In this document: in pieces, positions 2,554-57,630 of the stretch | Numbering within the stretch: position 1 is the first letter of the stretch | Layout: each line of letters opens with the position of its first letter | The notes under the pieces: generated by a model | Databases searched by the model: none | Told to the model about the DNA's origin: nothing | What the model saw: the letters and a program-made list of their open reading frames with translations, nothing else | Source: Flavobacteriaceae bacterium | Lineage (GTDB): Bacteria > Bacteroidota > Bacteroidia > Flavobacteriales > Flavobacteriaceae | DNA: 64,000 bases | Assembly: GCA_029252265.1 (NCBI GenBank) | Contig: JAQXBT010000001.1 | Location: 3,286-67,285, forward strand | Direction: 5' to 3' | Program-made: the position numbers and the translations under genes

Positions 2554-3255
2554 CTAGTTTACAGCGAACTCAAAAATTTGAGAATCGGAGGTGTTTCCAA
2601 CCTGATCGGTTGTGACCACTTTCCAATAATAGACTTGACCAGAAGCAACGGTTATTCCTAGGTTGGTATTACTTGTGTCTCCCACTTCTGTGATCGGGGG
2701 GTTCACAGTATCAACCCATAGTGTATAGGAGGCAATATCATTATCAACATCTGATGCTTCCCATTCGACTGTAATTGATCCCGCATTGACAGTTGTACCC
2801 GATTGAGGACTGATTGCTTCAGCAGGAAAAGGGGCATGGCTTTCTTCTTGGAGTCCTGCACTGTAAAACTTCCAAATGGAACTTTCAGCTGTATCGGTAG
2901 TACCACTAACTAAAGATTTCACGGACCAAGAATAGGCGACTCCTCTTAAAATACGAATCAGAAATTCATTTGTAATTGTACTGATGTTTCTAGAAGTACC
3001 CTCATTTAAATTGGTGATTTCTAAAATATACGAGCTGGCATTTGTAGCCTCCTCCCACTGAAACAATACTTCGGTTTCAGTTTCAGAAATAACCGCACCT
3101 TCGTTACATTCTGTATTGTTTTCAGGAAACAGAAGCGTTGCTTGTGTTGGTGGGTCTACAGAGTCGATCTCTGATCCATTTTCATCACTACTACAGGATG
3201 CACCTAGGAGTATTAAACTCAAACAAGTTGGGATTAGTTTTTTGAACGTATTCAT
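2554..3255 (-). CDS. Lipoprotein with two Fn3/Ig-like repeats, function unknown
   Basis: 233 aa; LGASC followed by acidic SSDE; two repeats of P-x-N/G...W...Y...Y-x-W-x-V; start overlaps the upstream stop by 4 nt. Confidence 0.7.
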   Translation of the reverse strand: MNTFKKLIPTCLSLILLGASCSSDENGSEIDSVDPPTQATLLFPENNTECNEGAVISETETEVLFQWEEATNASSYILEITNLNEGTSRNISTITNEFLIRILRGVAYSWSVKSLVSGTTDTAESSIWKFYSAGLQEESHAPFPAEAISPQSGTTVNAGSITVEWEASDVDNDIASYTLWVDTVNPPITEVGDTSNTNLGITVASGQVYYWKVVTTDQVGNTSDSQIFEFAVN

Positions 3256-6200
3256 TGCTTTACAATTTTATAATTATAGGTGTTTTCTGGGGTCACTATT
3301 TTTAGTATAAATAATCCATTAACGAGTTCCGACAAATCAACCTTAATTTCATTAGTGGTTGCGTTGTATGTTTTAGACACGACTCGTTTTCCTGTTATAT
3401 CGTAGATTTCTATAGGGAGTGTAGCCCTGTTTAGGAGATGAGTGCTAATAAATAGCTGATTATTTACTGGATTTGGATATACCAAAGGTTCAGTATTTAT
3501 AATGATGGTCTTTTCATAAACCCCTTGACATTCTTTGTTTGATTTCACGGATATCTTATTTACACCACTGACTAACTGCAATTCCGTTTCATTTTCAGCC
3601 GTTATAAGTGTTTCGTTATTTAGGGTCACATAATATAACTCGCCACCCTCAAGTGAGAGAGTTGCAACGAATGAATTTACAGATCTATTTGTGTTAACGA
3701 TTAACGCTTCTGGCTCATTGACGACGACTGTGAAACACTGTTCATAGTCAGATTGTCCATCAATCGTAATGCATAATGTATAGATACCAGCAGATAGGTT
3801 TTCGAAATTAATTTCTGAAGTAAACGTTTCAGTGGCCGTGTAGTCTCCTCGAGTAATCACAACGTTATAGGTGTCGTTTTCTACAGCAGATAACGCAATA
3901 TGACCATTATTTGAAGATCGGCATGTTTCACTCAACACAGCTATTGCAAAGTTTTCAAGTGGTAAATTGAAAATGGGACACCCTGTGACATTTACGGTCG
4001 TATTTGCAGGTGTATTTGGACAGGCATCGTCACCATCCAAAACACCATCTCCATCACTATCAGGATAATCAAACTCCATCCAATTAAAATTAAAACCACC
4101 TGATAATATTCGCATTCTTAATGTATGCACTCCTTTTTCAATGGTTAAATTGTCAGCAACCGTTTCCCACGTTTGCCAGCCATTTGTAATCACCGTATTC
4201 ATGACAATTAGCTCGGTTTCAACAGCGTTTTCATCAACACTGTACAATCCAATTTTCCCTACGCTAAATCCAGAAACCCTCAGTTTTATCCCATACAAAC
4301 TTGTTTGAGGCACATAAATAGAATAGTCGGCATAATCACCTGAGTCTGTGTAACCAAAATTTTGACCACCACCTTCATCAGAAGTGTCTTCGAGTCCCAT
4401 ACCTTCCATAAATTCGTAATCCTCAACTTGGATCACCGTCGGAATTATGGCCCGGTCTTTAGCGATATTGTTGATTACTAAATCTGAAAAAGTATTTAAT
4501 GTTTTATTTGATTGCGATTGAATTGTTGTTCCTGAATAACTAACCGTGATGTCATCCCCTAATAGAAAGAAATCATCTAGATTTAGAACCATCAAGCGTG
4601 CTCTTAATGGATCTGATATTACAGAAGTAACCGTCTTTTGGATCCCATTTATAAGCACCGTGAATTGGTCAGAAGTTGCATTTAATGATGTTGGTAAAAT
4701 AGATTCGCTTATGGTGATTTCTAAAGCGTTTTCACTCTCTCCAGTTTTACCATTTAAGGCATTTAAAGCAAGGGCATCAACCGTCCCAGTGTTTTCAAAT
4801 TCAATGCTACTTATATTGAAAGGGATATCATTATTAATATGAAATTTTAAACGGTGTTCCCCAGCTGGAAGAATAATATCTGAAACTTCAAATGTAGAAA
4901 ATTGTGACCAACCGCCTGTTGAATTCACCACTTGTGTTGTTGTTACTTCTTGATCATCAATTGAAAGAAAAAATTCCCCTCCGGATTCTTGTGTTGCCAA
5001 TCTAATTTTTGCTTTGTAAACAGCAGTTTCATCGATGCTAACTGTATATTTCATCCATTCCCCTTGTTCAACAAAACCGACATGAAATCCATTACTATTA
5101 ATCTGATCCGTATTTTTTTCTATATCGACGCCATCATTTCGATAGGACCAACCACTATTCCATGCGGTGTAATCTCCAGTAGATAAATTATAGTCTCCAA
5201 CAACGTTGTCATAGTATGCAAACTTATTTTTTCCTAAATCAAAATCTGCCATATGAACCACGCCTGGAATTACTGATGGTGTTCCATTAAAAGGGATTGT
5301 CTCATCTGTTTGTACTTGTCGGATCAAAGCATCAGGGACATCTTTTCTATAGCGGCTGTTGTCGACTAATAGATTATCGGCGAGTTTCATCATACTATTA
5401 AAAGCTTCTGTAGCAGTTGGCTCCGGACCATTGCCCTGCCAGTAGTCTAAAATATCCTGATAACCAGAGTTTATATCAATAGCATACGGACTGTCTATAT
5501 CTCCAATTTTACGAACGGCCCACCAGGCCCAACCGATATTATTATCTTCAAAAAGAGAAACGGCATCGGTAAACCAGGTATTTGAATTTTCGCCAGATTC
5601 TCCCATCCAAAGCGGCACATTTTGTTGCTCCCTAAGAGGTAAGATCCAATCCAAATCTCCAGGATTATTGTGGTTCCAATATTTATGGAAGCTATACACC
5701 ATATTGGTGTCCCAGGGTGGGGTGAGACCACTATGATCATTGGCATACGAGTTTCCTTCGATATACAAAATATGATTTGTGTCTACGCTTCGTATTCCAG
5801 TAGTGATCTCTTCAAAAAGGTCTCTCAGTAGTGTGTTTCCAGGTAAATCCCAGTGTGTTTCATTGATAAGATCATAGCCGCCAATCCACTCATTATCTTT
5901 GTACCTGTCCGCGATTCTCGTCCATAGAGCTACAAGTTTATCCCTGTTTTCTTGGCTTTCCCACAACGATGGTTTACTCGGGTCATAATCATTAATTTCG
6001 GATCCAGCCCCTTGGCCACCTGGCGTGGCATGCATATCTAAAATAACATAGATATCGTGAGCAGCGGACCACGCTAATACATCGTCAATCAATTCAAAAC
6101 CAGTTTCTATCCAAGTATTTTGACCCCCAACAGGCTCCTCTTCGATTGGGAGCGTAAAAAGGTTGTAATGCATCGGGATACGAATACTATTAAACCCCCA

Positions 6201-6506
6201 AGCTGCTAAAGAATCTACATCGCGTTTTGTGAAGTGGTTTTCTCGCCATTTATCATAAAAAGTTTCGGTATTAGCTTCTCCCATTAACTCTGTTAATTTA
6301 TCCTTTATTTCATGCTGAGACCCTGCAAAGCCAGAGGTTTGCATCATGTAACCTTCCATAATTTGCCAACCACCAGGTCCATATCCTCTTAAAAGAACTT
6401 CTTCGTTATTAGAATTCACTAATTTAGTTCCTTGCGTGTGAAGCCCTTGACTCCAACTGAACGTCGAAAGAACTATGAAGCTAATAAAAAGTATTAAATT
6501 TTTCAT
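3252..6506 (-). CDS. T9SS-secreted multimodular GH5 (GH5_46-like) glucanase with two CBM6-like modules, a TSP3 repeat and a type A CTD
   Basis: 1084 aa; WGFNSIRIPMHY, GYDLINE, LWMGESGEN; two CBM6-like modules ending TGGWSQF and TNGWQTW; DSDGDGVLDGDDACPNTP; C-terminal VYPNPV...IYDITGK...YKIVKQ. Confidence 0.88.
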   Translation of the reverse strand: MKNLILFISFIVLSTFSWSQGLHTQGTKLVNSNNEEVLLRGYGPGGWQIMEGYMMQTSGFAGSQHEIKDKLTELMGEANTETFYDKWRENHFTKRDVDSLAAWGFNSIRIPMHYNLFTLPIEEEPVGGQNTWIETGFELIDDVLAWSAAHDIYVILDMHATPGGQGAGSEINDYDPSKPSLWESQENRDKLVALWTRIADRYKDNEWIGGYDLINETHWDLPGNTLLRDLFEEITTGIRSVDTNHILYIEGNSYANDHSGLTPPWDTNMVYSFHKYWNHNNPGDLDWILPLREQQNVPLWMGESGENSNTWFTDAVSLFEDNNIGWAWWAVRKIGDIDSPYAIDINSGYQDILDYWQGNGPEPTATEAFNSMMKLADNLLVDNSRYRKDVPDALIRQVQTDETIPFNGTPSVIPGVVHMADFDLGKNKFAYYDNVVGDYNLSTGDYTAWNSGWSYRNDGVDIEKNTDQINSNGFHVGFVEQGEWMKYTVSIDETAVYKAKIRLATQESGGEFFLSIDDQEVTTTQVVNSTGGWSQFSTFEVSDIILPAGEHRLKFHINNDIPFNISSIEFENTGTVDALALNALNGKTGESENALEITISESILPTSLNATSDQFTVLINGIQKTVTSVISDPLRARLMVLNLDDFFLLGDDITVSYSGTTIQSQSNKTLNTFSDLVINNIAKDRAIIPTVIQVEDYEFMEGMGLEDTSDEGGGQNFGYTDSGDYADYSIYVPQTSLYGIKLRVSGFSVGKIGLYSVDENAVETELIVMNTVITNGWQTWETVADNLTIEKGVHTLRMRILSGGFNFNWMEFDYPDSDGDGVLDGDDACPNTPANTTVNVTGCPIFNLPLENFAIAVLSETCRSSNNGHIALSAVENDTYNVVITRGDYTATETFTSEINFENLSAGIYTLCITIDGQSDYEQCFTVVVNEPEALIVNTNRSVNSFVATLSLEGGELYYVTLNNETLITAENETELQLVSGVNKISVKSNKECQGVYEKTIIINTEPLVYPNPVNNQLFISTHLLNRATLPIEIYDITGKRVVSKTYNATTNEIKVDLSELVNGLFILKIVTPENTYNYKIVKQ

Positions 6507-6629
6507 TTTGTATATGTTGTAATTTTTAAAAGGAGCTGTACTTAATGTTACTCAAGTTCGTGATCCTACGGCTATAATCTTGCACTATTTACCGCTCTTA
6601 ATTTAGATTTGTAAATCGCAAAATAATTT

Positions 6630-6670
6630 AAAAGAGACACGTTCTATTTTTTTAAAACACCGCCTCTTTT
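6630..6670 (-). terminator. Probable intrinsic terminator/stem-loop between the PKD lipoprotein and GH5
   Basis: Minus strand AAAAGAGGCGGTGTT-N12-AACGTGTCTCTTTT; pairs using G-U; short U tract. Confidence 0.5.
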
Positions 6671-6692
6671 TTGTAATTATTTAAATTTCGAA

Positions 6693-8519
6693 TTACTGTC
6701 TTAACAAGGACCAGTTGTCTAAAACAATCCCATCAGGCCCCCACTGTCCACCACCAGATCTAAATAACAGATAATAGGTCCCAGTGGTTGTAATTTCAAA
6801 TTGCCCAGGGTTATCAGTAGCATCACAAGCTCCTGCAACGGCCGAACCAGAATAGGTTTTTATACTACCACAGTCCCATGCGTTATAGGCTTTCAGGACA
6901 TTCTGGTCTCCATTGTAGTCGCCCGTGTTTTCAACAGGTTGAGTTGCACCAATATATACTTCACCCCAAACGTCATTTATGTTAGCATAAGTCATGTCCA
7001 TATCAAATTGATAGGTTCCTGGGTCTAAAGTAACTTCGGTATATATGGCCCAGTGTTTCCATTCGCTAGGGCTTTCTGTTTCTGCAAATTTTGCCACCCC
7101 ATCGGCGATGGTGACGGAACCAATTCCATTATCAGAAGCGTCGATATTAATAATAGTCCAACCACTTGCATCCTCAAAACTTCCATTTGTAATAAGATTG
7201 GTGATAACAGCTGCTTCGACGGTCACTTCAGTGGAAGCCTCATTAGAAATTGCGGCATCATTCGTGGCTATTAATGTCACTGTATATGTACCTTCTGTTG
7301 CATAGGAATACACAGGGTTTTTATCTGTGGATGTGCCTGAGCTATCGCCAAAGTCCCAGGAATAAGTTGTGGCATTTGTAGACGTATTTGTGAAGGTTGC
7401 CGTAAGATTAGAGGCATCGAATGTAAAACTAGCAACTGGTGCTACAGCAGGGTCAATGACCGTAACTTCTTTTATGATTTCTGCAGAACCGGTCTCATTT
7501 GTAGCTGTTAAAATTACTGAATAGTTTCCGCCTTCAGAATAAGTATAACTCGGATTTTCATCTGTGGATGTGCCTGAGCCATCGCCAAAATCCCAAGAAT
7601 AACTTGTAGCATTCGCAGAGTCGTTTGTGAAGTTTGTGGTGAGATCAGAGGTTTCAAAATCAAAGCCAGCGACCACAGCAAGCGCAAATGATCCAAGGGA
7701 TCGAACGGTTACATTATCTATGGTAACGCCCTCGGCACCATAATTAGACCCACCACCTCGGATCACTAAATAGGCTGTTCCAGCGGTTGGGAATTCAAAA
7801 ATCCCCCCTGAACCGACACAACTATAGGCTGCAAAATCGCCATCAAAGGGCTCGCCTCCACAACCTTCCCAAGTGTTTAGGGCTAATCGCATTCCTCCAT
7901 CGGTATAGTCTTGACCTTCAACAGGAGTTTCGGTACCCACATAGACTTCAAACCAAGAATCGGACAAAGGCCCTCCTTTAATATCCATTGAAATTTGATA
8001 TTCGTTGTTTGCTAATACCTGTATAGGTTGGTAAATACCAACTTGTCCAAAACCGCCGCCTGTCCAATGGGCTTCATTGGTATCAAAGGAAATATCGACA
8101 CCCTCAGAAATTGGTAAAACAATCCATGGATCACTGCCATTAAATTCACCATTTTCAATAAGGTTAGGCGCTTTTAAGTCATCATTGATAACAATTGTTT
8201 GAATGGATTCTGCAACACCACCCTCGGTGAATATTTTAAATCTAACATTATAATCGCCACGATCAAAAAAGATCTTACTGGCTTCATACCCTTCAGCTGA
8301 AGAATTATCACCAAAATCCCAGTGTGTGTACCAATTTGCATCATTTGGAGCGGCTGTAAAAATCACTCTATTTGGGTTTTCAGAATCAAATGCGAAAGTA
8401 AAAAGAGCATCTTCGCTAGTTGGGGGCACAGCCGCCACTTCGTCGTCATCTGCACATCCCGTAGAAATCAAAATAATTCCTACCATTAAAATCCTACTTA
8501 AAAATTGTATTGTTTTCAT
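6693..8519 (-). CDS. Surface glycan-binding lipoprotein: three PKD domains plus two CBM-like beta-sandwich modules
   Basis: 608 aa; lipobox STGC then ADDDE; three WDFGD PKD motifs; two NL-x-x-NG-x-F...DN modules; lies directly after susD. Confidence 0.8.
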   Translation of the reverse strand: MKTIQFLSRILMVGIILISTGCADDDEVAAVPPTSEDALFTFAFDSENPNRVIFTAAPNDANWYTHWDFGDNSSAEGYEASKIFFDRGDYNVRFKIFTEGGVAESIQTIVINDDLKAPNLIENGEFNGSDPWIVLPISEGVDISFDTNEAHWTGGGFGQVGIYQPIQVLANNEYQISMDIKGGPLSDSWFEVYVGTETPVEGQDYTDGGMRLALNTWEGCGGEPFDGDFAAYSCVGSGGIFEFPTAGTAYLVIRGGGSNYGAEGVTIDNVTVRSLGSFALAVVAGFDFETSDLTTNFTNDSANATSYSWDFGDGSGTSTDENPSYTYSEGGNYSVILTATNETGSAEIIKEVTVIDPAVAPVASFTFDASNLTATFTNTSTNATTYSWDFGDSSGTSTDKNPVYSYATEGTYTVTLIATNDAAISNEASTEVTVEAAVITNLITNGSFEDASGWTIINIDASDNGIGSVTIADGVAKFAETESPSEWKHWAIYTEVTLDPGTYQFDMDMTYANINDVWGEVYIGATQPVENTGDYNGDQNVLKAYNAWDCGSIKTYSGSAVAGACDATDNPGQFEITTTGTYYLLFRSGGGQWGPDGIVLDNWSLLRQ

Positions 8520-50722: not shown

Positions 50723-53221
50723 ATGAAATACATCCTACTGTGTATTGTATTTACACTGTCAATCTGTGGTTTTTCCCAAACCAAGGTTACTGGCACTGTA
50801 TACGACGAAGATAAGCTCCCAGTTGCATTTGCAAATATTCTTTTTAAAGGCTCTTCAGAAGGCGTTATTTCAGATATTGATGGTCAGTTTTCAATAGAAT
50901 CTGACTCTAATTACTCAACATTAATTGTCTCTTATGTGGGTTTTGAATCCACGGAAGTAAATCTATCAAATAAACAAAACTCAAATCTCAAAATTCTTTT
51001 AAAAACAGGCTTTGAACTCGATGAGGTATTAATTGTAAATAGACCTAAAAAACGACTTAAAAAGAAAGAAAATCCTGCCTATAAAATAATGAAAGGTATT
51101 TGGGCTCATAAAAAAAGAAATGGACTAAGCCTTGTTGAAGCCTATGCATATAAAAAATATGCATCTACGGAAGTTGGCCTTAATAATATGGATCAGAAGT
51201 TTTTAAAACGACTCCTGAGAGATGATTATGATTCCATTATTTCTATCATAAAACAAGACAAAAGAAATAAAAAATTCTATGTCCCAATATACTTAAGTGA
51301 AATAATTCAGAAAGTATATGGCGATAATACCTTAGATAAAACACTTCAACTAACAGAAGCAGAAAAACAAATAGGAATCCAACAAGATGGGTATGTATTT
51401 GATCGAATTAGTAATGTTTTCAAAGAGATTAATGTATACGATAACAATATTGAGCTCTTAAATAAAACATTTGTAAGTCCGCTATCGACAGAAGGTTTTG
51501 GCTCTTATGAATATGTATTACAAGATAGTATTGTATCTGATGCTAAAACCAAATACCGTATCTATTTTTTCCCGCGAAGAGAAGGGGATTTAGTGTTCGA
51601 AGGAAATTTCATAGTCACCGACAGTGTCTATGCAGTTAATGCCATCAGCATGCGTGTTAATCCTAAGATCAACTTGAATCTGGTTCGTAATCTATATTTT
51701 GAAAAAACATTTTCAATAGAAAATGACAGTGTCTTTTTACCCAAAGACAATACTTATGAAGCGGATTTTACCGTGTTAACAAAAAATGAGAAGGAAAAAG
51801 GGCTCTATGTAAAGCGAATTGAAACTTTTGGAAACTATGATTTTGATACGACTAGAGCCGCTGAATTTTATGACAATAAAGTAGTTAAGTACAAACAAAA
51901 TCAGTTTGAGAAAAATGAAGAATATTGGAGTGAAAATTTGCCAGCGAGCATCAATAACAATGACACGGAGTCTGTTCTTGAAAATCTTAATGGAAATAAA
52001 AAAATAAAAAATATAACAGGCCTCTTAAGAACTCTTTCAAGTGGTTATTTAAAGGTCTCAAATTCTATTGAGTTTGGATCTGTTTGGAGCACTTTTGCGG
52101 TAAATGATGTTGAGGGCTATAAAGTTTCTGCTGGATTCAGATCTTTTAAAACCTTAGACGATCGGTTTAGAGTTAAAGGCAAGTTAGCCTATGGATTTAA
52201 GGACCAACAATTCAAATATTTAGTTGATACAAAATACCTGTTAAGCTACAAGCCAAGAGTGTCCGTTGGAGTTGGGTACCTAAACGATACCGAACAATTG
52301 GGGAGCCGAATTTTGAACAGTCTCGGAAATGCGCCTAGTGGATTTGGAACGACCTCACTTTTTAGTAGAGGCGAAAATTACTTTTTATCACGTATTAAAA
52401 AAATATCTGCAAATATAAATGTTGAGCTTTTTAGAAATTTTTTGGTGGGAGCTAACTTCTCAAACAACCGAATAAAATCGGCTGCTCCTGATGAGTTTTC
52501 AGTTGATTATTTTGACGAAGATCAGAAAAAAATACAATCTAATTTAGTAGATAATAATGCGGAGCTATTTCTGTTATATACTCCAAGGCGAAATATATTT
52601 GGATACGGCGTTAAACGACAATTTGGAACAAATTTATATCCCTCTTTTTTATTGAGCTTCCAAAAAGGGCTGGAAGTCGGAGATGGAGATACCAATTACA
52701 GCAAGCTTTTGTTTTCCTACAACCAGCCTATAAAACTTGGAAAATTTGGGATTATTAACAGTACAATTGAAACTGGTAAAATATTTGGAGCGACGCAGTT
52801 GTCGGTACTAAGTCCCGTGCCTGCCAATCAAACCTATTCACTTGTACCCAATACTTTTTCGCTTTTAAATTATTATGATTTTGTGGTCGATCAATTTGTT
52901 GTTGGTCACTTTATACATCATTTTAATGGATTTATTATGAATAGAATACCGTTAATCAAAAAATTAAAATTAAGAAGTGTAGCCGTTTTTAGAGGCGTCA
53001 TTGGGGATATTTCAGATCAAAACAGAAATATAAATCGGTCCTCAATTGCTTACAATGCGCCTACAGATCTCTACTATGAGTATGGTTTTGGTTTTGAAAA
53101 TATTGGCTTCGGAAACCTAAGAATATTCCGTGTCGACTTCATATGGCGATCCGAATCTGCAAACCCAGACAATTACGCTCCTAACTTTGGAGTTCGACTC
53201 GGGTTGTTACCTACTTTTTAA
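50723..53221 (+). CDS. Outer-membrane protein with a carboxypeptidase-regulatory-like N-domain and a DUF5686-like barrel
   Basis: 832 aa; TGTVYD...SDIDGQF...SYVGFE...LDEVLI; FVSPLS..G...Y.Y; ends in F after alternating strand pattern. Confidence 0.78.
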   Translation: MKYILLCIVFTLSICGFSQTKVTGTVYDEDKLPVAFANILFKGSSEGVISDIDGQFSIESDSNYSTLIVSYVGFESTEVNLSNKQNSNLKILLKTGFELDEVLIVNRPKKRLKKKENPAYKIMKGIWAHKKRNGLSLVEAYAYKKYASTEVGLNNMDQKFLKRLLRDDYDSIISIIKQDKRNKKFYVPIYLSEIIQKVYGDNTLDKTLQLTEAEKQIGIQQDGYVFDRISNVFKEINVYDNNIELLNKTFVSPLSTEGFGSYEYVLQDSIVSDAKTKYRIYFFPRREGDLVFEGNFIVTDSVYAVNAISMRVNPKINLNLVRNLYFEKTFSIENDSVFLPKDNTYEADFTVLTKNEKEKGLYVKRIETFGNYDFDTTRAAEFYDNKVVKYKQNQFEKNEEYWSENLPASINNNDTESVLENLNGNKKIKNITGLLRTLSSGYLKVSNSIEFGSVWSTFAVNDVEGYKVSAGFRSFKTLDDRFRVKGKLAYGFKDQQFKYLVDTKYLLSYKPRVSVGVGYLNDTEQLGSRILNSLGNAPSGFGTTSLFSRGENYFLSRIKKISANINVELFRNFLVGANFSNNRIKSAAPDEFSVDYFDEDQKKIQSNLVDNNAELFLLYTPRRNIFGYGVKRQFGTNLYPSFLLSFQKGLEVGDGDTNYSKLLFSYNQPIKLGKFGIINSTIETGKIFGATQLSVLSPVPANQTYSLVPNTFSLLNYYDFVVDQFVVGHFIHHFNGFIMNRIPLIKKLKLRSVAVFRGVIGDISDQNRNINRSSIAYNAPTDLYYEYGFGFENIGFGNLRIFRVDFIWRSESANPDNYAPNFGVRLGLLPTF

Positions 53222-53365
53222 AGAGAGTCACTTCATCCAACAGTCTTATTATTTCGACTTGTTTTAGGACATAAAAAAGACTTGTTATAATTATGTTAAA
53301 ATAGGCTTTTTAGTTTCTATTCAATTTACTACATTTACGCCCTTAAAAATAAATAAAATTACACT

Positions 53366-56161
53366 ATGGAATCAATGATGATTTATATGCCAATTGCAAT
53401 GGCACTTTTAGGTCTAGCATACATGCTAGTTAAAAAATTTTGGGTAATGAAGCAAGACGCAGGAGATGGAAAGATGAAAGAAATTTCTGACCACATCTAC
53501 GAAGGTGCTCTAGCTTTCTTAAATGCTGAATACAGATTGTTAGCAATTTTTGTAGTCGCTGCAAGTATTGTTTTAGCAGGAATTGCTTTTTACATGGAAA
53601 GTACCTATCTAATAGTAGTTGCCTTTGTTATCGGTGCGATATTTTCTGCATTTGCAGGAAACATGGGAATGAAAATAGCCACTAAAACAAATGTTAGAAC
53701 AACACAAGCTGCAAAAACAAGCTTACCAAATGCACTAAAAGTTTCTTTCGGTGGGGGAACGGTCATGGGACTCGGAGTCGCTGGTTTAGCGGTCTTAGGT
53801 TTAACCCTTTTCTTTATTATATTCTTTCATCTGTTTATGGGCGGTGAATGGACGAACACTACCGATATGACAATTGTATTAGAAGCATTAGCTGGGTTCT
53901 CTTTAGGAGCGGAGTCTATTGCGTTATTTGCAAGAGTCGGTGGTGGAATTTATACAAAAGCAGCCGATGTAGGCGCTGATTTAGCAGGTAAAGTTCAAGC
54001 AGATATTCCTGAAGATGACCCAAGAAACCCAGCCACAATTGCTGATAATGTTGGTGACAATGTTGGAGATGTTGCAGGAATGGGCGCCGATTTATTTGGT
54101 TCCTATGTAGCGACTGTTTTGGCAGCCATGGTATTAGGTAACTACGTCATTAAAGATATGGGTGGAAGTATTACGGATGCTTTTGGAGGAATTGGACCAA
54201 TTCTATTACCAATGTCGATTGCTGGTGTTGGAATTATTATTTCTCTTATCGGAACTTTATTAGTTAAAATTTCTTCAAACGATGCAAAAGAAGCGGACGT
54301 ACAAAAAGCATTAAACATAGGAAACTGGGCTTCAATCTTAATGGTTGCTGCAGCATGTTATGGTTTAGTAACTTGGATGTTGCCAGCGACCATGCAAATG
54401 GATTTCTTTGGTGAAGGGTTGCAAGAGATATCTTCAATAAGAGTATTCTATGCGTGTTTAGTAGGCTTAGTCGTAGGTGCTGGAATCTCAGCATTTACTG
54501 AATACTACACTGGACTCGGTTCAAAACCAATCTTAAAAATTGTACAACAATCAAGTACAGGCGCAGGAACCAACATTATTGCTGGTTTAGCGACGGGGAT
54601 GATCTCTACATTCTCCTCAGTATTATTATTTGCAGCGGCCATATGGGCCTCTTATGCTCTAGCAGGATTTTATGGTGTTGCTTTAGCAGCTTCTGCAATG
54701 ATGGCAACAACTGCAATGCAGTTAGCAATTGATGCTTTTGGACCTATTGCTGATAATGCAGGTGGTATTGCTGAAATGAGTGAGCAAGATCCAATTGTAA
54801 GAGAACGCACCGATATTTTAGATGCTGTTGGTAATACAACTGCTGCAACAGGTAAAGGATTTGCAATTGCTTCTGCTGCACTAACATCATTGGCCTTATT
54901 TGCTGCCTATGTAACGTTTACTGGTATCGATGGAATTAACATCTTTAAAGCGCCGGTATTAGCCATGTTATTTGTTGGTGGAATGGTGCCAGTAGTATTC
55001 TCTGCACTTGCTATGAATGCAGTTGGTAAAGCAGCCATGGAAATGGTAAATGAAGTGGTAAGACAGTTTAAAGATATTCCAGGAATTATGGAAGGAACTG
55101 GAAAGCCAGAATATGATAAATGTGTTGCAATATCTACAAAAGCATCGTTAAAAGAAATGATGTTACCAGGGTTGTTAACCATTGGATTTCCTATAGTTGT
55201 TGTATTAGTAGGTAAATTAGTGTATCAAGACAACAATACACTGGTTGCCGAAATGCTTGGTGGTTATATGGCAGGTGTTACTGTAAGTGGTGTACTTTGG
55301 GCTATTTTCCAGAACAATGCAGGGGGTGCTTGGGATAACGCTAAGAAGTCTTTCGAAGCTGGTGTTGAGATCAACGGCGTGATGACTTACAAAGGATCTG
55401 AAGCTCATAAAGCAGCCGTTACCGGTGATACCGTTGGAGATCCATTTAAAGATACGTCAGGACCATCAATGAATATTTTGATTAAACTTACGTGTTTAAT
55501 TGGATTAGTGATTGCACCAATCCTAGGAGGTCATTCTGACGAATCTAATGTAGATACACAAAAATTTAGCTACAGTCTAGGAGTCAATGTGGCTACAGGC
55601 GTAAAGTCTCAAGGGATAGAGTCTATCGATTCTAAAGCCATTGCAAAATCTTTTAAAGATGTATTTGACGGTAATAATTTAGAAGTTAGTGAAGAAGAAA
55701 GTTTACAGTTTTTACAAACTTATTTCAATGAATTTAAAGCTAAAAAACAGTTAAAAGATGCTGAAAAGTTTAAAGCTTTAGCACAAGAAGGCATTGCTTT
55801 TTTAGATGAAAACGCCAAAAAAGAAGGTGTAACTTCGACTGAAAGTGGACTACAGTATGAAGTGATTACTAAGGGCGAAGGTGCCTCACCAAGTGCTGAA
55901 AACAGTGTAACTGTACATTACACAGGAACTTTGATTGATGGGACCGTTTTTGATAGTTCAGTTGAGCGTGGAACGCCAGCTACATTTGGTGTTTCACAAG
56001 TAATACCAGGTTGGACAGAAGCTCTACAATTAATGTCTGTTGGAGATAAGTGGCGTTTGGTTATCCCATCTGAATTAGCGTATGGAGCAAGAGGTTCAGG
56101 AGCAAAGATTGGACCTAATTCAACGTTAGTATTTGAAGTTGAACTTCTTAAAATAAATTAA
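53366..56161 (+). CDS. hppA: Membrane-bound ion-pumping pyrophosphatase (K+-dependent) fused to a C-terminal FKBP_N + FKBP PPIase
   Basis: 931 aa; [69 protein letters not shown]; then FSYSLG...TESGLQY...[16 protein letters not shown]...VIPGWTEAL...IPSELAYG...[14 protein letters not shown]. Confidence 0.93.
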
Positions 56162-56179
56162 CCCTTTGGGATTACATAT

Positions 56180-56210
56180 AAAAAAATCACCTCATTGAGG
56201 TGATTTTTTT
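56180..56210. terminator. Bidirectional intrinsic terminator between convergent hppA and the kinase gene
   Basis: AAAAAAATCACCTCA-T-TGAGGTGATTTTTTT. Confidence 0.88.
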
Positions 56211-56231
56211 TGTCTTTATATAAAGGGTCGA

Positions 56232-56846
56232 TTAAAACAAACCGTTTATTTCAGCATCAATTTTGTTAATGATAAACCCAAGATCCTCGGGATTTTCTAC
56301 AAAGTCTAAATTATCGACATCTATAATAAGTAACCGTCCTTTTGTGTAGCCATGAATCCAAGCCTCGTAACGCTCGTTTAAACGACTGAGGTAGTCAATA
56401 CTGATAGAGTTTTCATAATCACGTCCTCGTTTATGAATTTGAGACACAAGGTTTGGAATCGAACTCCTCAAATAGATGATAAGATCCGGACATTGCACCA
56501 AGGACTCCATAAGTCCAAAAAGAGACGAATAATTTTCAAAATCACGATTAGTCATCAAGCCCATAGCGTGTAAGTTAGGCGCAAATATATTAGCGTCTTC
56601 ATAAATGGTACGATCCTGAATGATATTTTTTCCACTTTCGCGAATTTGCAACACCTGACGGAATCTGCTATTTAGAAAATACACCTGAAGGTTGAAACTC
56701 CATCGCTCCATTTGATTATAAAAATCATCTAAATAAGGGTTATCAACAACATCTTCGAGTTGAGCTTCCCATTTGTAATGTTTGGCGAGCAACTGGGTTA
56801 GGGTTGTTTTTCCTGCTCCAATATTTCCGGCAATAGCAACATGCAT
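56232..56846 (-). CDS. Deoxynucleoside kinase
   Basis: IAGNIGAGKTT P-loop, NPYLDDFY, QDRTIYED, RGRDYE. Confidence 0.93.
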   Translation of the reverse strand: MHVAIAGNIGAGKTTLTQLLAKHYKWEAQLEDVVDNPYLDDFYNQMERWSFNLQVYFLNSRFRQVLQIRESGKNIIQDRTIYEDANIFAPNLHAMGLMTNRDFENYSSLFGLMESLVQCPDLIIYLRSSIPNLVSQIHKRGRDYENSISIDYLSRLNERYEAWIHGYTKGRLLIIDVDNLDFVENPEDLGFIINKIDAEINGLF

Positions 56847-56850
56847 AATA

Positions 56851-57630
56851 TCAATTGTTTAAAAGTTGGTAGTGGTGAAGAAATTCTTCGTCATAAATAT
56901 ACAAGCTTTGGTTGGTTACAAAAAACTGTTTTACTAAAACTTTGTTTAAGTTTAACATCAAAAAGGTATCAGCGTTTTTTGGTTTATAATAAAGGTCATT
57001 TCCTTTCTTTAAAAACAAGACACCATTCCAAAGTTTTATATCTGTATACCCTTGATGCGGTAGTTTTGCAATGAGGCTTCCCGTATAATTATAACAATGC
57101 AACTCTGTATCGAGCAAAACCCAGCAATAATTATAATCACTCTCTAAGGCGAGAACTTCCCCAGAGAGCGGCGCTGTTTTAACCCTCGTTTTAGAAGAGC
57201 TATAATCAAATAATTCTAACTGTAATGTATTGGAATCAAACAACCAAAAGGTCGTGTCATTTCCATAAGAAATGTCGGACACTGTTCGCAATGGACTCAG
57301 CGTATTAAAGTCAACGGCGATCAGTTCAGCCAAGCGATTGTCTAAAAGAGTAACGGAATTAAAGTCTTTATAAAACAAGGCTAACTTTAGGGCATTAAAC
57401 ACGGAGACTTCACTAATAGCGCCTTTATTTAGATCGCTATAATTTTGTAAACCTTGGCTGTTTTTTTTAAAAAGCACATTCGAGTTTAAGAAATAAAGAG
57501 ATTCAAATGGATCCATTCCAACAAATTGATCCCATGCCGCAGGGGTGGATACCAGCAAATCGGCACGCATATTGGTTTGACCAAAAAGCCAACAATTGAA
57601 AAGCAGTATAAAATAAAGAGGTTGTTTCAT
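56851..57630 (-). CDS. Hypothetical exported protein, beta-propeller-like
   Basis: 259 aa; signal peptide; repeated short beta-strand pattern; co-oriented with its neighbours. Confidence 0.65.
   Translation of the reverse strand: MKQPLYFILLFNCWLFGQTNMRADLLVSTPAAWDQFVGMDPFESLYFLNSNVLFKKNSQGLQNYSDLNKGAISEVSVFNALKLALFYKDFNSVTLLDNRLAELIAVDFNTLSPLRTVSDISYGNDTTFWLFDSNTLQLELFDYSSSKTRVKTAPLSGEVLALESDYNYCWVLLDTELHCYNYTGSLIAKLPHQGYTDIKLWNGVLFLKKGNDLYYKPKNADTFLMLNLNKVLVKQFFVTNQSLYIYDEEFLHHYQLLNN

Follow-up and report, generated by a model that had tools for sequence, protein, structure and literature searches.

Membrane pyrophosphatases (mPPases) are usually treated as self-contained pumps of 16 transmembrane helices (TM1 to TM16). 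In these proteins, the hydrolytic centre is cytoplasmic, and the coupling funnel, the gate and the exit channel are located periplasmic to it (PMC5150537). Solved pumps dimerise via TM10, TM13 and TM15 and do not need extra domains for this (PMC10897367). Here, we describe an mPPase gene that encodes such an extra domain. It is found in a 64,000-nucleotide (nt) stretch of a Flavobacteriaceae genome (assembly GCA_029252265.1, contig JAQXBT010000001.1, positions 3,286 to 67,285, forward strand); this whole stretch is called the window and provides the coordinates used below. The gene (53366 to 56161, plus strand) joins a complete pump to an FKBP module of the type found in Mip and FkpA. Its closest described relative is the K+-dependent H+-pumping pyrophosphatase (H+-PPase) of Flavobacterium johnsoniae (Luoto et al. 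2011 and Tsai et al. 2014, as cited in PMC6882861 and PMC10897367), which is alike in its H_PPase domain, its gate signature and its bacterial family, whereas the window protein adds a 210-residue Mip-type FKBP module after TM16.

The module has its own set of described counterparts. Legionella Mip and Escherichia coli FkpA share the succession of FKBP_N, long helix and FKBP_C, and they dimerise via their N-terminal helices, as is predicted here for the fused module. Different from these proteins, the fused module contains neither a signal peptide nor a lipid anchor, and its N-terminus is continuous with a 16-helix pump; the fused protein may work like Mip but would not be a canonical free-standing member of this group. 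Foldases held on the outer side of the cytoplasmic membrane are also represented by E. coli PpiD, with its N-terminal TM anchor, and by the Bacillus lipoprotein PrsA. PpiD and PrsA are parvulin-type proteins anchored by a single helix or by a lipid, and their likeness to the fusion is a functional analogy; the foldase encoded in the window, in contrast, would be anchored by a polytopic ion pump. The closest free-standing homologues are FKBP lipoproteins of marine Flavobacteriales (e.g. P0146 and P0204). They are approximately 224 amino acids (aa) long, 64-71% identical across the whole module and also membrane-tethered, but their tether is an N-terminal lipid on the cysteine of a signal ending in an LSSC lipobox, and their genes are located away from the pump. 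They probably represent the ancestral form of the module. A literature search retrieved no paper on an mPPase-FKBP fusion, in line with a first-pass annotation of the window, made from the sequence by a model, which knew of no description.

The window gene consists of a single open reading frame (ORF) of 931 codons plus stop, with zero internal stops, and its intact product would have a mass of 97 kDa. Pfam detects three domains: H_PPase (residues 14-716, 53405 to 55513, plus strand; E-value 9.5e-249, 827.8 bits against a cut-off of 29.7, profile positions 1-645 of 645), FKBP_N (PF01346, residues 732-833; E-value 5.9e-22, 78.8 bits against a threshold of 22) and FKBP_C (PF00254, residues 842-928; E-value 5.8e-31, 107.1 bits against a threshold of 21.1). 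The two FKBP domains, both above their Pfam thresholds, follow each other in the canonical Mip/FkpA-type order. Two NCBIfam models also match, NF001955 for the membrane pyrophosphatase (1203 bits, cut-off 1059) and NF008602, a 206-aa FKBP model (215.8 bits, cut-off 198). The pump ends with LVIAPILGG at approximately 55514-55531 and is followed by a linker of about ten residues (721-731 in the feature annotation, 55526 to 55558, plus strand) and by KFSYSLGVN, a typical FKBP_N start. At this junction, neither a signal peptide nor a second start was found, and TM16 directly precedes the module. Downstream of the gene, a terminator-like hairpin with a T run (56180 to 56210, plus strand; 14-pair stem with 4 GC pairs) begins 19 nt past the stop codon; six hairpin sites were found in the region, compared to 1.9 expected. 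ORF and Pfam analyses thus reproduce the architecture proposed by the first-pass annotation, i.e., one 931-aa frame comprising mPPase, linker, FKBP_N and a catalytic FKBP domain, with no stop, second methionine or signal peptide at the junction and with a terminator after the gene.

A gene of this kind could result from two genes that were wrongly joined by assembly or annotation, and the window genome is indeed fragmented, consisting of 83 contigs at 89% completeness. However, the fusion recurs in independent data. A cluster search (proteins of 512-1630 aa, words from residues 700-931, clusters at 90% identity) identified approximately 85 clusters with all three Pfam domains in ENA, JGI, Tara and NCBI data, in which the identity of the module to the query ranges from 97% down to 61%. 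The identical junction is found in 78-80 of these clusters (at least 78), in proteins of 906-935 aa: APILGGH is followed by a variable linker of 8-11 residues and by the motif K-x-S-Y-S. GGH is invariant among the fused forms, and the remaining linker varies in sequence and by one to three residues in length. Within the genus, seven of 20 species genomes also carry the fusion, and the metagenome-assembled genomes (MAGs) with names that carry it, several of them at NCBI, belong to Formosa sp. Hel1_33_131-like and other uncultured marine Flavobacteriaceae.

The junction itself (55526-55558) is bridged at 97-99% identity by contigs of two independent DNA studies (X1 record 7, 55075-56250; X4 record 31, 55321-56209) and of two metatranscriptome libraries (X15 record 13, 55384-56112; X17 record 21, 55426-55668). 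The latter are consistent with transcription as a single unit, with the limitation that RNA libraries can contain DNA. Pairwise ratios of non-synonymous to synonymous substitution rates (dN/dS; Nei-Gojobori, dS approximately 1) are 0.09-0.22 for the module, mostly 0.04-0.16 for FKBP_C and approximately 0.03 for the pump core. The low ratio of the module therefore indicates that selection maintains it in the fused state. The first-pass annotation had considered a misassembly, a stop at the junction or an occurrence in this assembly only as outcomes that would undo the fusion; contigs from independent DNA studies and RNA libraries span the junction, and the fusion extends over the clusters and genus members listed above. 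With an in-frame junction repeated so often and a module under purifying selection, the artefact explanation is refuted and retains virtually no probability.

Two other searches define where the fusion resides. A search of genome contigs for related loci retained 80 loci, of which three were fused, all from marine Flavobacteriaceae, and 77 were free-standing FKBPs from many phyla. In this search, the matches that appeared to extend into TM16 turned out to contain signal peptides and not pumps. When residues 660-931 were compared with 1.84 billion cluster representatives, the best 150 matches were multi-FKBP-domain proteins; fused pumps are hidden here within ordinary mPPase clusters built at 50% identity, and this search carries no weight on how widespread the fusion is.

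The distribution within the family was followed in one genome from each of 300 genera. A pump is present in every genome of this sample, and the full fusion is found only in the window genome. Nearly all other sampled pumps continue past GGH into a tail of approximately 70-100 aa (e.g. L003, 1414-1620, minus strand; L006, 3664-3939; L011, 1471-1734, minus strand; L012, 3664-3918; and other relatives). This small tail is fast-evolving and has a conserved G and a conserved E-V; it is predicted to consist of three strands and a helix, with a core predicted local distance difference test (pLDDT) score of 73-85. It matches no Pfam family, and a fold search of the tail model (pLDDT 68) against the PDB gave no match at E <= 0.001. 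In some family members, other modules follow the same ...APILGGH sequence: a duplicated tail (L116, 2974-3522; genome G087), an OmpA peptidoglycan-binding domain (L117, 2906-3517; G033), a tail plus YceI (L118, 766-1539, minus strand; G180) and SnoaL_2 (L119, 3180-3626; G183, and L120, 951-1388, minus strand; G076). Thus, the FKBP module is one of at least five kinds of periplasmic modules that start at exactly the same codon of Flavobacteriaceae pumps, along with small tail, duplicated tail, OmpA, YceI and SnoaL_2. Judged from these sequences, flavobacterial pumps use their C-terminus as a general site for the attachment of periplasmic domains. Extensions of the C-terminus are also described for other mPPases, and an OmpA-like extra domain, as seen here on a Flavobacteriaceae pump, is known from pumps of Paucibacter and other Burkholderiales; the role of these additions is called unknown (PMC11210485). 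This 2024 PeerJ review does not mention FKBP, YceI, SnoaL, the flavobacterial tail or cassette exchange at a fixed junction.

The boundaries of the FKBP cassette are delineated by comparison with G166, a closed genome of the same genus (99% complete). Its pump core is 93% identical to that of the window and has the same flanking genes, but carries the small tail. In a blastn comparison, window and G166 are collinear over 52503-55537 (84% identity) and 56178-57549 (82%), without similarity between these segments. Homology breaks at nt 55537 (codon 724) and resumes at 56178, at the terminator. Between the breakpoints, the window contains a 640-nt FKBP cassette (55538 to 56177, plus strand), which comprises the FKBP module, the stop codon and 16 nt, while G166 contains a 217-nt tail cassette. 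In the X4 and X17 data, contigs were also seen that track the pump to 55531 and then diverge into G-H-A-A-A-D, which is consistent with a co-occurring tail-type allele or with populations that carry another cassette.

Core and module of the fused genes have different histories, as deduced from three lines of sequence comparison. In a nucleotide tree of the pump core, fused genes and two tail-bearing genes form one well-supported clade, and the approximately unbiased (AU) test rejects a single fused clade (p 0.0005); a protein tree with more fused lineages requires at least three changes. Furthermore, core and module diverge to different extents in the same pairs: P0018 and P0074 are 98% identical in the core but 75% in the module, and L037 and L038 differ by a dS of 0.51 in the core and 0.94 in the module. 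These data suggest that cassettes move between lineages by recombination within the strongly conserved 3'-terminal part of the pump gene, and gene conversion from free paralogues probably also occurs. In P0119, which represents a distant lineage with a core of 71% identity, the module is closest to free lipoproteins, and this protein may stem from an older fusion or from one that arose separately.

Three fused genomes contain no FKBP_N domain other than that of the fused gene, and no FKBP_N gene was found in the closed genus-mate or in another close relative. All five compared genomes contain the same set of other, more distant FKBPs, which are at most 48% identical to the module. The FKBP cassette would therefore add a dimeric chaperone of the Mip/FkpA type that appears to be dispensable for the genus. 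An origin of the fusion within the genus by read-through into an adjacent FKBP gene was considered and rejected: genus-mates exist without any FKBP_N gene, the free lipoprotein homologue that was examined has an unrelated neighbourhood, and the sole free copy next to a fused gene, in L035, arose from the fused module by recent duplication. In this locus, the fused gene (3139-5922) is followed by a free gene for a protein with a Sec signal, FKBP_N and FKBP_C (6001-6705), which is 84% identical to the locus's own fused module. The free copy is located between the pump gene and the deoxynucleoside kinase (dNK) gene; it appears to have arisen by a recent tandem duplication and would be a likely donor in gene conversion.

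On which side of the membrane the module resides can be deduced from the pump. TM16 (residues ~701-720, 55466 to 55525, plus strand) was assigned from the secondary structure of a model and from homology to TM16 of solved pumps; it bears gate residues and would anchor the module. In sequence order, the catalytic Asp residues (687-696) are followed by N16.46, K16.50, 13 hydrophobic residues and GGH. This order runs from the cytoplasmic centre to the gate, and therefore the chain should leave the membrane on the periplasmic side. An AlphaFold2 model of the full-length monomer (20-row alignment) reached a mean pLDDT of 54 and was used for secondary structure alone, which showed a helix at 701-720 and coil at 721-729. 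The relatives of the module agree with a periplasmic exit. Its closest free homologues are the lipoproteins described above, the free copy in L035 carries a Sec signal, and the OmpA (peptidoglycan-binding, E-value 1.8e-18) and YceI (E-value 1.4e-42) domains that follow the same GGH in other Flavobacteriaceae pumps belong to periplasmic families. Because no open-access statement that both mPPase termini are periplasmic was found in the literature, the topology is derived from the residue order in TM16 and from such indirect evidence. The C-terminal module is most probably periplasmic, as the first-pass annotation had assumed.

A periplasmic exit also allows for a different use of TM16, namely as an internal export signal with N-in/C-out orientation, after which the module would be cleaved behind G-H-S/A and released as a soluble periplasmic Mip/FkpA. 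The invariant GGH is followed by a small residue (S, A or T) in most fused and tail forms, which would place small residues at -3 and -1, and the module also occurs free, as a secreted protein or a lipoprotein, and switches between this state and the fused one. However, the putative -1 position is occupied by P, E or K in some relatives, and in the solved structures TM16 is a full-length helix of the inner ring of the pump rather than an exposed signal peptide (PMC5150537). We consider release by cleavage unlikely.

The module retains sequence features of a Mip-type foldase. It matches Legionella Mip (1FD9) over 202 of 210 residues with a phmmer E-value of 1.4e-53, and E. coli FkpA (1Q6H) with an E-value of 1e-34. 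D142 and Y185 are catalytic residues of Mip, and their equivalents D863 and Y906 are retained in the fused module. Together with Y852, F862, W883 and F923, they are invariant or at least 90% conserved across fused and free forms. FKBP_C (55889 to 56149, plus strand) was defined by PF00254, by the alignment to 1FD9 and by these invariant columns, and peptidyl-prolyl isomerase (PPIase) and chaperone activity of the fused module appears likely from this conservation. FKBP_N (55559 to 55864, plus strand) contributes a putative dimerisation and long-helix domain with helices at 730-749, 756-769 and 776-817.

A two-copy structure prediction for residues 722-931, based on a 20-row alignment, reached a score of 0.70, compared to 0.36 for the best control; among proteins of solved structure, this mark was reached by 20 of 30 pairs of one chain and by one of 23 single chains. 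The three runs had at least 94% of contacts in common, with pLDDT values of at least 89. The predicted homodimer interface comprises residues 730-786, i.e., the first two FKBP_N helices, and starts approximately nine residues past the membrane exit. Because Mip and FkpA dimers have already been solved, passing the controls may reflect resemblance to them, and the prediction demonstrates likeness and not proof of binding. With this reservation, the dimerisation via FKBP_N that the first-pass annotation had put forward is supported by the model.

The position of this interface directly after the membrane exit raises the question whether the FKBP_N dimer is merely a helper in cis, which stabilises or assembles the pump dimer or folds prolines of the pump and serves no other clients; a similar structural role is conceivable for the default tail domain. 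Arguing in the opposite direction, the catalytic FKBP_C is the most constrained part of the module and has retained its PPIase residues, the pumps of genus-mates function without the module, and solved pumps dimerise by TM10, TM13 and TM15 alone (PMC10897367). A helper function restricted to the pump is thus quite improbable.

The pump core aligns to the Vigna radiata pump VrPPase (4A01) up to residue 758 of 766 and to residues 21-727 of 735 of the Thermotoga maritima pump TmPPase (4AV3), i.e., to within eight residues of the solved C-termini. The acidic motifs of the hydrolytic centre are present at residues 192-206, 227-235 (DNVGDNVGD) and 687-696, as are the gate residues N703 (16.46) and K707 (16.50). 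Position numbers of this type were counted from the motifs by ourselves. By this count, E183 corresponds to 5.43, seven residues ahead of R190 (5.50), glycine and alanine occupy 6.53 and 6.57, respectively, and the sequence GNTT-A-A-T-G-K provides A493 (12.46) and G496 (12.49). The signature sites of the H+-PPase subclass (53906-53935, 54044-54112 and 54830-54868) are identical in all 78 fused proteins compared. The F. johnsoniae-type K+-dependent H+-PPases are characterized by a semi-conserved glutamate at 5.43, and not at 6.53 or 6.57, in combination with A12.46 (PMC6882861, PMC10897367). Because the gate glutamate is located at 5.43 as in F. johnsoniae, the window pump is probably a K+-dependent H+ pump and not a Na+ pump. 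NCBIfam and JGI label the protein as sodium-translocating, and this database name is probably wrong for the window protein.

These data can be combined into one reading that we regard as fairly probable, namely a periplasmic foldase, probably dimeric, that is anchored by TM16 on the scaffold of a dimeric pump, with the two activities independent of each other. The first 720 residues would constitute a complete inner-membrane pyrophosphatase of the F. johnsoniae type, H+-pumping and K+-dependent. TM16 would leave the membrane on the periplasmic side and enter the Mip/FkpA-type module via a linker of 9-11 residues. The ancestor of the module would be a free-standing FKBP lipoprotein, itself tethered to the membrane, and TM16 of the pump would have taken over from lipid anchor and signal peptide. 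In this arrangement, the homodimeric pump could serve as a two-fold-symmetric scaffold that holds a dimeric, V-shaped foldase on the periplasmic surface of the inner membrane. The foldase would most likely act on newly exported envelope proteins and be functionally comparable to PpiD, PrsA and the lipoprotein Mips, while pumping and folding would be mechanistically independent. The FKBP module would be one of several periplasmic cassettes that are swapped by recombination at the codon-precise ...APILGGH junction.

The alternative is a functional coupling, in which an FKBP dimer above the exit channels regulates the pump or is driven by the pump cycle, so that pyrophosphate (PPi) would power a foldase in the ATP-free periplasm. 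Only 9-11 residues separate the module from TM16, the bearer of N16.46 and K16.50, nearly all family members have some periplasmic domain at this position, and both halves are two-fold dimers according to the dimer prediction and PMC5150537. Against this stands that OmpA, YceI, SnoaL_2, the small beta-alpha tail and FKBP are unrelated folds at one site, which speaks against a specific mechanical or regulatory interface. In addition, species of one genus differ by gain or loss of the cassette with pump cores that remain 93-98% identical, the linker is variable in sequence and length, and the interface helices are reported to undergo no conformational change in their periplasmic parts (PMC5150537). 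Functional coupling therefore appears unlikely, and its most explicit version, in which the FKBP dimer is mechanically linked to TM16 and the exit channel so that PPi cycling powers or gates the foldase and client binding in reverse regulates pumping, is highly improbable. An alternative anchor on a dimeric scaffold is favoured over a mechanistic link because unrelated modules share the codon, because the cassette is patchy within one genus and because the probable ancestor of the module, a lipoprotein, was tethered to the membrane before the fusion. Of the possibilities raised by the first-pass annotation, the membrane-tethered dimeric foldase is thus retained, while a coupling of envelope folding to pumping, and with it the idea of a new system, loses ground to a swappable cassette with patchy occurrence.

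Some observations do not fit easily with a foldase that simply uses the pump as an anchor. The linker that would have to let the FKBP_N helices pair across the two TM16 ends of the pump dimer is short. The near-universal presence of a periplasmic C-terminal domain could mean that this position matters to the pump itself, beyond being a convenient anchor. Finally, NF008602, the best-scoring NCBIfam model on the module, is named after FklB, which is cytoplasmic in E. coli.

The surroundings of the fused gene comprise a DUF5686 gene on its 5' side, separated by a 145-nt spacer (53222-53365), and a convergent dNK gene on its 3' side. Adjoining the dNK gene, a 259-aa ORF (56851-57630, minus strand) is conserved, with a 260-aa counterpart in L035, and has zero Pfam matches. 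In many relatives (L005-L007, L009-L013), a gene for a soluble inorganic pyrophosphatase of family-I-like type is found directly upstream of the pump gene. At this position, which is the only one that was inspected, it is absent from the window and from G166, and DUF5686 adjoins instead.

Both halves of the fused protein belong to well-known families, and the added value is the pattern of cassette exchange. The C-terminus of the flavobacterial pump is a site at which whole domains are attached and exchanged, and this provides a way into the purpose of the C-terminal extensions on bacterial mPPases, for which an explanation is lacking so far. Abundant marine flavobacteria associated with blooms commonly carry the FKBP version, which is the sole Mip/FkpA-type chaperone in those genomes. 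With this fusion, nature provides a test case for a polytopic pump as dimeric anchor of a periplasmic foldase, and the occurrence of FKBP and tail cassettes in near-identical pumps offers a ready natural pair for experiments. If the two activities were coupled after all, the fusion would constitute a new way to energise periplasmic folding by a chaperone in a compartment that lacks ATP.

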